Origin: Nematostella vectensis
Taxonomy: Eukaryota
Direction: 5' to 3'
Length of the DNA: 64,000 nucleotides
NCBI RefSeq assembly: GCF_932526225.1
Contig: NC_064047.1
Span: 1,817,027 to 1,881,026 of the forward strand
Both the position numbers and the translations under genes were made by a program. Below, in pieces: positions 43,655 through 47,661 of the stretch (its first letter is position 1; each line of letters starts with the position of its first letter). Below the pieces are notes generated by a model. The model worked only from the letters and a program-made list of their open reading frames with translations, made no database searches and was not told the DNA's origin.

Positions 43655-43735
43655 ATGATGAAAGTTCTCGTCCTCGGTCTTGCGCTGGTCTTCCTGTGCT
43701 CCGTGAGGGCTGAGGATGACAAGAACTTTGCCTTT
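43655..43735 (+). CDS. MMP exon 1: signal peptide (MMKVLVLGLALVFLCSVRAEDDKNFAF)
   Basis: A hydrophobic h-region followed by a VRA| cleavage-type motif. Donor TTT|GTAAGT. Confidence 0.8.
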
Positions 43736-44208
43736 GTAAGTCTTAAATCTGATTCAGACAGCACGATTTAGTCGTATAATACCTGCCTCAGAAATGCCTG
43801 TGTCTTAGCCCTTAATTACACACTACGACTTTTGTATCGAGCATTGCCGTAAGTGAGTCGTAGGCTGATTTACACTCTACTGGAGTTGTAGAAGTAACGC
43901 ATACAACTAAATCCTGCTATCTAAATTAGCCTTTATGAAATTTATACGAATAATTTCTCGCATACAGAACCTGTCAATCTAGCGACATTTCATGTTACAA
44001 TATTCTCGGTATTACGACATTGATTTCTGGTGTAGCCAACCATAAAAAATATGGGAGATCGCCTCGATTGTTCTTCATATATGAGAGCTCTTCTCCGAGT
44101 ATTTTTTGGAAAACTGATTGCGATATACAGAAAATGTTCTTAAGAACGTTCTTAATTTTTTTTTTTTTAATCATATGACTGCCTTGCCAAATTGATTTTC
44201 ACTTCTAG

Positions 44209-44426
44209 GACTTTCTGAGCAGATACAACTACATCTCCCAAACGAGAAGCGGAAACCATGACTTCACGACTGCAATCAAGAATTTCCAAACATTCTTCGG
44301 GCTGCCTCTGTCAGGCGAGCTGGATCAAGCTACCGTGGCCCTCATGAGAAAACCGCGGTGCGGAATGCCCGATGTTGACGATAGCGGTCTGCGCGTGCGC
44401 AGATACAATGCAAGAGATCCATGGAG
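44209..44426 (+). CDS. MMP exon 2: propeptide with cysteine switch ([72 protein letters not shown]-)
   Basis: The PRCGxPD cysteine-switch motif of MMP propeptides is present. Acceptor cttctag| and donor AG|GTGAGC. Confidence 0.85.
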
Positions 44427-44868
44427 GTGAGCTGTACTTTGACGTTACATTTTTTTCGTTTTTCTTTCCCAAGCGTTAACCCTTTACAGACTAAAGTTAA
44501 TGAGCTATAAAGCTAAAACCATTCCTGAACGATCAACGGCGGACATTTTGATCTCATTGACTTGTCCATGTGACATTTATGTTGTCATGGCCACCTTCCT
44601 AAGCCTACAAAATGATGAATCTTTCATATTCTCGTCCCCACGCTTTTCAAGTCCAAGTGCCTCTTACGACTTGTTAAGCTTTGTTAGACAACAAGTTCTA
44701 CAACAGCGTTGGAAAAACACGCACCGTTCCCACAAAAACATCATTGCGATTGCCACAGCCGTGTTGAAAACCGTTGGTCCCAGGCCCCCGGGCATTTAAG
44801 AGCACAGAAAACCCAGTAAGAACGCCTGGGCTAGACTTGCAAAACATTGTACTTTCTTTTATTTTCAG

Positions 44869-45024
44869 CAAAAAGAGCCTGACTTACTACATCGAGTACG
44901 GCGCTGACTTGAGTGCGTCCGAACAGGATGACATCTTCCGACTTGCTCTTAAGTTCTGGGCGGATGAGTCCGGGCTCTCTTTCCGTCAAGTGAAAAGTGG
45001 AACAGCCGCCGATATTAAGATAAG
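44869..45024 (+). CDS. MMP exon 3: start of the catalytic domain (SKKSLTYYIEYGADLSASEQDDIFRLALKFWADESGLSFRQVKSGTAADIKI-)
   Basis: Acceptor attttcag| and donor AG|GTGACG. Confidence 0.8.
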
Positions 45025-45142
45025 GTGACGACACGAAACATGCAAAAGCTTAACTAGAGGAGGGAGACTGAGACGGACTGGAAGCGTTAGACGCAGACGC
45101 GTCGAGAATCCAAGAACGTATATTATCACCTATTTCAATAAT

Positions 45143-45352
45143 TGTTGTCAGGGCAAATGGCGAATGGCGATTGGCAAATTGGCAGTTCAAAAAATAACAA
45201 GGACTTCGTCAAATTTCTACTGAACGTAGGAAAATGTGGATAACTTCTGCGATTACATTACTTATCATCTTTTTTCTTACTAATAACTATACCCATAGAA
45301 AATGATTGGCTTTAAAACTCCCATTTGCCAATTTCCATTCGCCCTGACAACG
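45143..45352. mobile_element. MITE-like element (about 210 bp) in MMP intron 3 with about 35-bp TIRs (GTTGTCAGGGCAAATGGCGAATGG...)
   Basis: 45143-45186 is the reverse complement of 45310-45352 with a few mismatches. Confidence 0.45.
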
Positions 45353-45654
45353 TTTATTTAAAAAGGTGCATTTTGAAATAGATGCATATGAAGTTAGCGG
45401 GAGAAGAAGAATGGAGAACCAGGCCCGTACCCAGGATTTTTCATAGGGGGAGGGTGCGAAATCCGTAAAAGTAGACCTAATTTTTCCGGAGGGGGGTTCT
45501 CTGATAAAAATCTGACCACCCCCGAAAAAAAACAAAAAGGAATTCTTTAATGCCTTTGCAGTATCTCTACGGGACGTTTATTGTCGGATTCGGCTACGTA
45601 GAAGAGTGATCTAGGTTATGCTTCATTGTTTTGTCAACAAATAGCACGTCTATT

Positions 45655-45686
45655 GAGAACCGAAAATGGACCTTCGGCCGTTGTGT

Positions 45687-45718
<32 letters not shown>

Positions 45719-45790
45719 GGTGGGTGGGTGGGGGTGCCATCGCACCTCCTGCACCACCCCCCCCCCCCCTCCTTCCCTCTGGGTACGGGC
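45655..45790. repeat. (GT)n-(G)n ... (C)n simple repeats in MMP intron 3
   Basis: Direct reading: gtgtgtgtgtgtgtgggggggggggggg…ccccccccccc. Confidence 0.9.
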
Positions 45791-46054
45791 CTGGGAACAA
45801 GTAACGTTCCGTTTCATGTTTTCTCATTCTTTCACGATTAAGTTTAATTCGCCTTTATTCCCGGACTTGCGCCTTTATTCCCGGACTTGCGCTGACGCCT
45901 CCATAGACAACAAGCCTTTATTGACATTATAAGAAGTCCGTACAATACAACACCAATGCTCGAAGAGGGAGCGGTCATTGCGTGCTCTTTTGCGCAGTTA
46001 AAAGCATTAAGAAATCCTTAGGCTCTCAAGCATAATATTTCACCCTCGTTTTAG

Positions 46055-46371
46055 TTTCGGCTCCGGAGCTCACATGGGCACCCATGTAGAGTCTCAGTGC
46101 CCCTTCGACTTCGACGGTCCCGGGAAAGTCCTCGCCCACGCCTACTTCCCCTCAGATGGGCGTGCCCACTTTGACGAGGACGAGACCTTCACCCATGGGA
46201 CCTCATCTGGGATCAACCTCATGTGGGTGGCGGCGCATGAATTCGGACACTCCCTGGGTCTTGGACACTCTAATGTTCAGGGCGCCCTTATGTATCCCTA
46301 CTACACGGGGTATAAACCGGACATGAAGCTCCACGCGGACGACATCGCTGGAATACAGCACCTTTATGGCG
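46055..46371 (+). CDS. MMP exon 4: catalytic zinc site ([106 protein letters not shown]-)
   Basis: The [12 protein letters not shown] (HExxHxxGxxH) zinc-binding motif and an ALMYP Met-turn are present. Acceptor gttttag| and donor G|GTAAGT. Confidence 0.9.
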
Positions 46372-46754
46372 GTAAGTGAATCGAGACTTATTTTCTTTCC
46401 AAATAAATTGGTTATCGCAAAAGCTTTACCTTGGTAAATTCTAAGCTTTTCCGACGGATAACACTCCTCTCAGAAAAATTTGAAACAGGAATATTGCTCG
46501 CGCAAATCGATGAAGCTTGCAATACTTGCGTAACGTAAAACAACATACTCGGGATCTCTCATGTGCTCGCCAACGCGACCAAGCTGCATTTTTAAGCGCG
46601 TCTAGATCTTTAAAAAAATCATTTTTTATTGCATTCTTAGGACAGAAGTATTGACACCGTGTCAATTTACGAGAAGAGATGAGTTTAATCCCCCCACCTC
46701 TAAACTCACTTTGATAATAACGATTTATAGTCATATATTATATTTCTTCCTCAG

Positions 46755-46820
46755 GCCCCACGGGTGGAGGCGGAGGCGAGGTCACTGATGCTCCTGTGGT
46801 TCCACCAACTGCCAATCCCA
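46755..46820 (+). CDS. MMP exon 5: Gly/Pro linker (G PTGGGGEVTDAPVVPPTANP-)
   Basis: Acceptor tcttcctcag| and donor A|GTAAGT, with consistent phase. Confidence 0.6.
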
Positions 46821-47069
46821 GTAAGTGTCCAGGTCACCAGATGAATGTGTGATATCGTTCCTAAGGTTTGAAACACTTTGCCAAAAATGGTTTTTAATAA
46901 GCTTACCACTTGAAACTTTCTAAACTTACTTATTGTTATTTGAAAATGCGACACCGTAATATGATAATGATTGTGATATGTGCCCAATATTTTAAAAAAA
47001 TTATAAGGAATTGACACGTAGGGCGCGGCCGTGCCCCTTTCCCCATATTTGTCACAGTTCTGAGCCCCG

Positions 47070-47520
47070 TCCATACCTCCTAATAAATATTCGCCTATCT
47101 CAACACCCTAATAAATATTCGCCTATCTCAACACACTAAAAATATTCGCCTATCTCAACACCCTAATAAATATTCGCCTATCTCAACACACTAAAAATAT
47201 TCGCCTATCTCAACACCCTAATAAATATTCGCCTATCTCAACACCCTAATAAATATTCGCCTATCTCAACACCCTAATAAATATTCGCCTATCTCAACAC
47301 CCTAATAAATATTCGCCTATCTCAACACCCTAATAAATATTCGCCTATCTCAACACCCTAATAAATATTCGCCTATCTCAACACCCTAATAAATATTCGC
47401 CTATCTCAACACCCTAATAAATATTCGCCTATCTCAACACCCTAATAAATATTCGCCTATCTCAACACCCTAATAAATATTCGCCTATCTCAACACCCTA
47501 ATAAATATTCGCCTATCTCA
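47070..47520. repeat. 28-bp minisatellite (CTAATAAATATTCGCCTATCTCAACACC), about 16 copies, ending 25 bp before the ShKT exon acceptor
   Basis: Direct reading. Confidence 0.9.
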
Positions 47521-47548
47521 ACACCATTGTCTCGTGTATTCTCCAAAG

Positions 47549-47661
47549 ACTGCAGAGACCGTTTGGACAGACCATGTGCTCCTTATAAGGACGCGGGGTA
47601 TTGCAGCACGTACCCAGATAACATGAAGTACTGGTGTGCTAGGACATGCAAGTTCTGCTAA
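47549..47661 (+). CDS. MMP terminal exon: ShK-toxin-like (ShKT) domain (N CRDRLDRPCAPYKDAGYCSTYPDNMKYWCARTCKFC*)
   Basis: The six-cysteine pattern C-x8-C-x8-C-x11-C-x2-TC-x2-C matches an ShKT domain. It joins in phase 1 to the linker exon. Stop TAA at 47659-61. Confidence 0.75.

Follow-up and report, generated by a model that had tools for sequence, protein, structure and literature searches.

A matrix metalloproteinase gene of Nematostella vectensis with a C-terminal ShKT domain and its place in a cnidarian-wide family

In the 64,000-nucleotide stretch of Nematostella vectensis DNA considered here (NC_064047.1, positions 1,817,027 to 1,881,026 of the forward strand; this whole stretch is termed the window, and positions are counted from its first letter), a gene at 43655-47661 on the forward strand encodes a matrix metalloproteinase (MMP) which ends in a ShKT domain and lacks a hemopexin domain. 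The locus raises the question of what such an enzyme represents: an unusual combination of domains, a relative of the ShKT-bearing vertebrate MMP23, a toxin-like protease, or one representative of a broader group. In our judgement it is quite probably the last of these, namely a member of a large, cnidarian-wide family of minimal-domain MMPs which carry a C-terminal ShKT domain in place of the hemopexin domain, and for which a mechanism of secretion, activation, and exosite-mediated binding is proposed below. The gene is that of the N. vectensis RefSeq protein XP_048577985.1 and had already been annotated, and the domain layout, too, is already known from RefSeq, UniProt, and a family spread over the Cnidaria.

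Joining of six exons with GT-AG borders yields an open reading frame (ORF) of 951 nt, which encodes 316 residues and ends with a TAA stop codon. The original prediction had described the product as a secreted MMP with a cysteine-switch prodomain, a catalytic domain, a Gly/Pro linker, and a single terminal ShKT domain; its coordinates, the motifs it quoted, and the domain order were confirmed to the base by exon joining and translation, and the length was settled at 316 residues. The elements of the locus are the following:

43595-43605, forward strand: upstream in-frame ATG, the start codon in RefSeq, adjoining a TATAAA sequence (43600-43605)
43655-43735, forward strand: exon 1 with the start codon in gccaccATGATG Kozak context, the signal peptide, and the first prodomain residues; the next intron is in phase 0
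44209-44426, forward strand: exon 2 with the PG_binding_1-type prodomain, the PRCGMPD motif (44353-44373), the RVRR↓Y motif (44392-44403), and the beginning of the catalytic domain
44869-45024, forward strand: exon 3 with the N-terminal part of the matrixin catalytic domain
46055-46371, forward strand: exon 4 (317 nt) with the remaining catalytic domain, including MGTHVESQC (46074-46100), the zinc motif (46236-46268), and ALMYP (46284-46298)
46755-46820, forward strand: exon 5 with the Gly/Pro-rich linker, bordered in phase 1 and predicted to be disordered
47079-47525, no strand assigned: non-coding minisatellite, 16 copies of the 28-bp unit CCTAATAAATATTCGCCTATCTCAACAC with 98% matches, filling most of intron 5
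47549-47661, forward strand: exon 6 (113 nt, entered in phase 1) with the single ShKT domain from Cys281 to Cys316 (47551-47658) and the TAA stop codon (47659-47661)

The catalytic part of the protein is matched by the Peptidase_M10 profile (PF00413) at residues 99-257 with an E-value of 2e-48 and a score of 164.6 bits (cut-off 24), the alignment spanning profile positions 2-159 of 159, and its best relative of solved structure in the PDB is pro-MMP7 (pro-matrilysin), which aligns with residues 26-258 (E=9e-51). The zinc motif HExxHxxGxxH is located at residues 213-223 and is accompanied by an ALMYP Met-turn; His213, Glu214, His217, His223, and Met231 are invariant in 22 aligned cnidarian homologues. 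The prodomain, which can be aligned to that of pro-MMP7, contains a PG_binding_1 domain (residues 30-73; 28.3 bits against a cut-off of 23) and the cysteine switch PRCGMPD at residues 76-82, in which Arg77, Cys78, Gly79, and Asp82 are invariant in the same homologues. On the basis of the profile, the zinc motif with its Met-turn, and the cysteine-switch prodomain, the protein is assigned to the matrixins (MEROPS family M10A). At the N-terminus, residues 1-19 (43655-43711) form a signal peptide of the cleavable type with the usual n/h/c layout, MMKVLVLGLALVFLCSVRA↓ED, the cleavage site reading SVRA↓ED. Its hydrophobic core corresponds to a Kyte-Doolittle peak of 3.25 over residues 4-14, and no further hydrophobic segment was found in the protein by this measure. 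A furin-type motif, RVRR↓Y (residues 89-92), separates the cysteine switch from the catalytic domain; RxRR-Y is conserved among the anthozoan homologues and absent from the Hydra members.

Behind the catalytic domain follow the Gly/Pro-rich linker, GPTGGGGGEVTDAPVVPPTANP, and the ShKT domain, CRDRLDRPCAPYKDAGYCSTYPDNMKYWCARTCKFC, after which the stop codon stands directly. All six ShKT cysteines (Cys281, Cys289, Cys298, Cys309, Cys313, and Cys316) are invariant in the alignment of 22 cnidarian homologues, and Asp283 of the CxD motif is nearly so. The six-cysteine pattern, spaced C-x(n)-C-x(n)-C-x(n)-C-x3-C-x2-C, has a single occurrence across all six reading frames of the 64-kb window, and 200 shuffles never produced it. 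In an AlphaFold2 model of the full-length protein (mean predicted local distance difference test (pLDDT) score of 80), a confident pro-catalytic body and a confident ShKT domain are joined by a linker whose pLDDT falls below 50 at residues 262-264 and 270-279.

Two observations count against reading the protein as a regular MMP with a regular ShKT domain. The first one concerns the ShKT domain, whose own match to the Pfam ShK profile (PF01549) runs end to end (residues 280-316, profile positions 1-37 of 37) and scores 17.3 bits, which is below the gathering score of 20.9 (E=0.0074). Of the Pfam assignments expected in the original prediction, Peptidase_M10 and PG_binding_1 were thus obtained above their cut-offs, whereas ShK failed at this step and was rescued by profile comparison, fold, and cysteine conservation. 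The same Pfam profile is matched by 14 of the 22 family members at E≤0.01, the best at 4e-7. A profile built from 19 homologous C-terminal domains and searched against the PDB matched BmK1 (9e-8), aurelin (8e-6), the toxin domain of MMP23 (1.5e-4), BgK (7e-3), and OspTx2b; all 12 matches at E≤1 have the ShK fold, six of them lie at E<0.01, and the weakest is the cysteine-rich domain of CRISP-2. The AlphaFold2 model of the domain alone reaches a pLDDT of 94.9, and a Foldseek search of the PDB with it returned three matches only (Acan1, BmK1, and AsK132958), with TM-scores of 0.78-0.79 and root-mean-square deviations of 1.5-1.9 Å; for a domain of 37 residues their E-values of 0.46-7.4 are not significant alone, and they are used here since all three have the ShK fold and agree with the profile search. 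Because of these profile matches, the predicted fold, and the conserved cysteines and CxD aspartate, the ShKT assignment is upheld despite the Pfam score below threshold.

The second observation concerns the S-loop of the catalytic domain. The histidines equivalent to those of the structural zinc site are present (His158, His180, and His190), but the aspartate of this site, which is part of the H-G-D sequence in vertebrate enzymes, aligns to Gly160 and adjoins a seven-residue insertion in the S-loop, MGTHVESQC (residues 159-167), with a nearly invariant extra cysteine, Cys167. Because the aspartate ligand is replaced by glycine beside this insertion, the catalytic domain cannot be taken as structurally equivalent in full. 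Glu164 or Cys167 might serve as the replacement ligand. Removal of the signal peptide and the prodomain leaves seven cysteines, so that Cys167 should be either free or a metal ligand. A cysteine-containing S-loop insertion is also present in MMP23, and MMP19 has a cysteine at about the place of Cys167.

How firmly the ShKT exon belongs to this gene can be judged from several sources. The RefSeq protein XP_048577985.1 ("matrilysin", 336 residues) is identical to the window model from its Met21 to its end, ShKT exon included, and exon 6 is compatible in phase and terminates in a stop codon. An orthologue from another species (P0007, about 60% identical and with the same ShKT domain) is encoded by one unbroken ORF in at least 24 transcript contigs of 1.1-1.4 kb, each assembled independently; these contigs link the catalytic and the ShKT parts. 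In the sea anemone Actinia tenebrosa, the genomic locus of the homologue (P0010) has intron positions and phases as in the Nematostella gene, including exons of equal length for the C-terminal half of the catalytic domain (317 nt) and for the terminal ShKT domain (113 nt, phase 1); the sole difference is an extra Nematostella intron, which splits a 374-nt exon into the 218 and 156 nt of exons 2 and 3. The ShKT domain is C-terminal in 22 of 22 aligned homologues. These data bear on the suspicion of a gene-model artefact, in which the ShKT exon would stem from another gene, or from an alternative 3' end that is rare, and the predominant product would be either a plain matrilysin-like enzyme or one with other downstream exons. 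This suspicion draws on the old JGI model EDO46663.1, which is 100% identical but partial and stops before the ShKT domain, on the minisatellites which crowd intron 5 and the 3' flank, and on the fact that the transcript support comes from the orthologue of another species and not directly from Nematostella. It is opposed by the RefSeq model, the phase and stop codon of exon 6, the orthologous transcripts, the Actinia gene, the uniform C-terminal position of the domain, and also by the composition of the window itself: a tblastn search with a full-length hemopexin MMP and 14 hemopexin C-termini gave noise at E~1 only and no hemopexin-like sequence in the 64 kb, and a six-frame scan for the cysteine pattern found exon 6 and no second ShKT-like exon. 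We regard an artefact as very improbable indeed and this alternative as close to refuted already. In addition, no second MMP gene was found in the window.

The predicted absence of a hemopexin domain is thereby borne out, as the protein has no match to PF00045, the four-bladed hemopexin domain, in Pfam and the 64 kb contain no sequence of this type. Downstream exons spliced in place of the ShKT exon, which had been named as the finding that would overturn the prediction, were looked for and not found; the ShKT domain is retained in RefSeq, in the orthologue transcripts, and in the Actinia exon.

The RefSeq protein and the window model differ at the N-terminus, where RefSeq has 20 extra residues, MHIKAAIGFAISNLAGVAAT, starting at the ATG at 43595, 20 codons upstream of 43655. 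In the alignment, none of 21 cnidarian homologues has this extension. Because the ATG at 43595 abuts TATAAA, because the ATG at 43655 lies in a Kozak consensus, and because no homologue is extended, the RefSeq start codon is probably mis-called and the ATG at 43655 is probably the true start. The TATAAA sequence at 43600-43605 would then probably be promoter and not coding sequence, and may act as a functional TATA box. The choice is of practical relevance, as automated predictors would miss the signal peptide behind the upstream start.

The name given in RefSeq, "matrilysin", stems from best-hit similarity and does not denote orthology. With the matrilysins (MMP7 and MMP26) the protein shares the signal peptide, the cysteine-switch prodomain, the catalytic domain, and the lack of hemopexin, but it differs from them by the added linker and ShKT domain, the RVRR site, and the seven-residue S-loop insertion. 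In the matrilysins themselves, nothing follows the catalytic domain, and a furin site is missing.

The close relatives of the protein are found elsewhere. At least eight Nematostella paralogues possess a signal peptide, a prodomain with PRCG, a catalytic domain, a Gly linker, and a ShKT domain; in RefSeq they are named "matrilysin", "hatching enzyme", and "50 kDa hatching enzyme". Among the best 120 database hits, 41 show the ShKT cysteine pattern after the catalytic HExGH, and all of these with a source name are cnidarian, representing stony corals, anemones, octocorals, and hydrozoans (the genera Oculina, Porites, Orbicella, Pocillopora, Montipora, Desmophyllum, Actinia, Exaiptasia, Dendronephthya, Paramuricea, Hydra, and Hydractinia). 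Several hits are annotated with Peptidase_M10, ShK, and PG_binding_1 in RefSeq or UniProt, and one is listed as "ShKT domain-containing protein" in UniRef. The members of this family agree with the window protein in the signal peptide, the PG_binding_1 prodomain with PRCG, the M10 domain, the Gly-rich linker, and the ShKT domain, at full-length identities of 45-64%, and are known under names such as "matrilysin-like", "hatching enzyme-like", and "macrophage metalloelastase" in RefSeq or as NvMMPs of the matrisome. Within the family, the window gene belongs to a subgroup with a longer ShKT variant ("YPDNMKYWC") and a longer Pro-rich linker, which is no categorical difference; other variations are the missing furin motif in Hydra members and the presence of two ShKT domains in members from Porites (P0009) and Hydractinia (P0067). 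The architecture had been called unusual in the original prediction, and this holds in comparison with vertebrates only; in cnidarians it does not, given the Nematostella paralogues, the share of ShKT-bearing proteins among the best hits, and the existing RefSeq model.

Two observations touch on the arrangement of family members in genomes. In Actinia tenebrosa (WAHB01000168.1, 8010-8852), a second MMP gene encoding 307 residues with PG_binding_1 and Peptidase_M10 domains is found on the opposite strand, some 2 kb downstream of the homologue, so that the family appears to be locally duplicated there. The Nematostella paralogues named "50 kDa hatching enzyme" and "hatching enzyme(-like)" have consecutive accessions, XP_048584329-XP_048584335, and for each of them the contig listed has one and the same length, 22,168,631 bp.

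In the literature, an MMP with this domain list was reported from Nematostella, which may or may not be the window gene itself (Babonis et al. 2016; PMC4877951), and NvMMP-1 to -12 were catalogued as matrisome regulators (Bergheim et al. 2025; PMC12549020). Nematostella metalloproteases are up-regulated as the larva turns into the polyp (PMC12549020). The literature searched contained neither a mention of the accessions of the window gene nor a functional study of the MMP-ShKT family.

A C-terminal ShKT domain is also typical of cnidarian astacins (PMC8191133; PMC9848320), and many of the ShKT-containing proteins are metallopeptidases (PMC5793123). The ShKT-astacins, such as Hydra HAS-7 and HMP1, Nematostella NEP-6, and the Brugia parent protein of BmK1, resemble the window protein as secreted zinc metalloproteinase zymogens with a Pro/Gly-rich linker and one or more C-terminal ShKT domains, and the best PDB match of the ShKT profile is the ShKT domain of the Brugia metalloproteinase. 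The enzyme parts are different, since the former are M12A astacins with an aspartate switch, whereas the window protein is an M10 matrixin with a cysteine switch; its match to the Astacin domain of Pfam covers the zinc motif only (E=0.038).

The comparison with vertebrate MMP23 (MMP23B) is less simple. In both proteins, an M10 domain is followed by ShKT and hemopexin is absent; both also possess an RxRR site of the furin type and a cysteine-bearing insertion in the S-loop. In MMP23, however, the ShKT domain abuts the catalytic domain without a linker and is followed by a C-terminal immunoglobulin (Ig)-like domain (PF13895/PF13927), whereas the window protein stops right after the last ShKT cysteine. 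Furthermore, MMP23 lacks a cysteine switch and, in place of a cleavable signal peptide, bears a type-II signal anchor. The window protein thus lacks the marks of the MMP23 subfamily: its signal peptide is of the cleavable type, its PRCGMPD is intact, an Ig-like domain is absent, and it does not group with MMP23 in the tree described next. The contrast with MMP23 drawn in the original prediction, by signal peptide and cysteine switch, stands; the absence of an Ig domain follows from the stop codon directly behind ShKT.

The phylogeny that had been called for was calculated by neighbor joining (NJ) from catalytic domains (36 sequences, 157 columns, 100 bootstraps; MMP23 sequences fetched from the database), yielding a tree in which deep nodes are weak and the MMP23 branch is long. 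MMP23 forms its own long-branch clade with 100% bootstrap, and the window protein is placed outside; MMP23 and all cnidarian ShKT-MMPs were grouped in 1 of 100 bootstraps, and MMP23 was joined to the Paramuricea sequence alone, which is divergent and long-branched, in 23 of 100, probably by long-branch attraction. The clade of cnidarian ShKT-MMPs has a weak bootstrap of 30%. In the catalytic domain, the identity to MMP23 is 37-39%, whereas hemopexin MMPs from echinoderms, hemichordates, and fishes reach 52-62%. Orthology to MMP23 was therefore considered and is not supported, neither by grouping in the NJ tree, which is the only tree calculated and has weak deep nodes, nor by identity.

Under the idea of a common ancestry, the eumetazoan ancestor would have had a furin-activated MMP-ShKT, of which the cnidarians keep the secreted cysteine-switch form and MMP23 is the derived, membrane-anchored descendant. 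Beyond the furin-type site, the order of catalytic and ShKT domains, and the cysteine-bearing S-loop insertion in both, this idea can point to the "MK" of the ShKT domain, which lies in equal register in both, and to one NV2 MMP model that was automatically named "matrix metallopeptidase 23B" (PMC12549020 supplement). The tree and the catalytic identities argue in the other direction, as do the missing cysteine switch and the added Ig domain of MMP23 and the ranking of the ShKT profile matches, in which the nematode astacin domain and aurelin score above the MMP23 toxin domain. Moreover, ShKT is encoded by its own phase-1 exon and is attached to many cnidarian enzyme types, which makes independent exon shuffling an easy alternative. 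On account of the tree, the identities, the profile ranking, the separate phase-1 exon, and the promiscuity of the module in cnidarians, independent acquisition of ShKT by the cnidarian MMPs and by MMP23 is the simpler reading, and we consider the common ancestry unlikely. If it were true, the cnidarian family would show the ancestral state of MMP23, and the tethered ShKT domain could have an ancient role in the modulation of ion channels or other membrane proteins.

For the window protein as a member of the cnidarian MMP-ShKT family, the following mode of action is proposed. The signal peptide would direct the protein into the endoplasmic reticulum and the secretory pathway. Latency would be maintained by Cys78 of PRCGMPD, which would cap the catalytic zinc bound by His213, His217, and His223, in accordance with the established cysteine-switch mechanism. 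MMP11, MMP14, MMP23, and MMP28 are activated by furin-type proteases in the secretory pathway and released in active form. By analogy with these enzymes, the RVRR↓Y motif predicts intracellular activation, i.e. a cut by a furin-type proprotein convertase in the secretory pathway, after which the enzyme would be released active. The catalytic domain would then cut extracellular or matrix substrates, while the flexible Gly/Pro linker may tether the disulfide-knotted ShKT domain as a putative exosite. Since no processing site separates the ShKT domain from the enzyme, it is expected to remain attached, and its role is most likely that of a binding or targeting exosite, by analogy with hemopexin in other MMPs and with ShKT in Hydra HAS-7 and HMP1.

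A different function, raised in the original prediction as toxin-like or channel-modulating potential, would follow if the protein were a venom- or toxin-like protease with a dual role, the ShKT domain blocking or modulating K+ channels, whether in prey or in cells of the anemone itself, and the MMP part degrading matrix. The domain does have the ShK fold according to profile and AlphaFold2/Foldseek data, and it contains an adjacent pair, Lys306-Tyr307, which is kept in most of the closest orthologue group (MKYWC, NKYWC). The Lys-Tyr dyad of ShK and BgK is located 5-6 residues after the third cysteine, whereas Lys306-Tyr307 is located 8-9 residues past this cysteine at equal spacing of the third and fourth cysteines; the pair therefore lies three residues C-terminal of the ShK/BgK position and does not match the canonical dyad register. 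Close homologues have other residues in its place (LQYWC, MKTWC, MSYWC), and most paralogues lack it (DYVIANC and similar sequences). The lysine is in register with that of the MMP23 toxin domain ("LMKRLC"), which was reported to modulate Kv channels in vitro (Rangaraju 2010, cited in PMC5793123), and the ShKT domains of the nematode metalloprotease BmK1 block Kv1.3 (PMC5793123), but ShK-fold peptides with or without the dyad can be inactive on Kv channels, as in the case of AsK132958 and an Oulactis peptide (PMC5793123). A similar dual role was proposed for ShKT-astacins in nematocysts, yet the nematocyst-proteome literature searched did not turn up an MMP of the matrilysin type, and the one remark on tissue that concerns an MMP-ShKT transcript of Nematostella, which may not be that of the window gene, is an enrichment in the mesenteries (PMC4877951). 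Finally, the linker has no dibasic site at which ShKT could be freed as a peptide. A toxin-like protease is in our view improbable. With neither the canonical Lys-Tyr dyad nor a processing site by which the tethered domain would be released, the protein does not conform to the type I KTx, and a classical ShK-type K+ channel blocker is weakly disfavoured on these sequence features.

The surroundings of the gene are rich in repeats. Eleven nucleotides past the stop codon, C-rich satellites begin with 10.5 copies of a 69-bp unit (47672-48400), followed by four copies of a second 69-bp unit (49539-49822) and about 38 copies of a 44-bp unit (49909-51585); owing to them, the GC skew over 46-52 kb amounts to -0.33 to -0.65. 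Past the stop codon, AATAAA first occurs at 48545, so that the 3' untranslated region may run through the first satellite. Intron 3 (45685-45775 and 45856-45896) harbours a (GT)n run, behind which long homopolymers of G and C follow, as well as a perfect 20-bp tandem duplication, cgcctttattcccggacttg in two copies. The upstream neighbour of the MMP gene is a large Ski2-like helicase of the Brr2/ASCC3 type, whose exons lie at about 8500-36300 on the reverse strand and whose ORF fragments match the Pfam domains Helicase_PWI, DEAD, Sec63, and SNRNP200_wHTH. Within this region, an ORF fragment on the forward strand (23864-24223) matches rhodopsin-family seven-transmembrane receptors (7tm_1, E=5e-11) and, being on the opposite strand, could belong to a nested gene or a pseudogene. 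Two long tri- and hexanucleotide microsatellite tracts (27846-28529 and 62819-63656) give rise to artificial ORFs of 160-275 residues in several frames.

As a discovery the locus carries little weight, since the gene and its layout are already in the databases and the family occurs throughout the Cnidaria. For anyone who expresses enzymes of this family, the conserved furin-type activation site matters, and the remodelled structural-zinc loop with its extra conserved cysteine is likewise relevant. For the biology of the group, the locus illustrates that in the secreted metalloproteinases of cnidarians, matrixins and astacins alike, ShKT and not hemopexin is a common C-terminal module.

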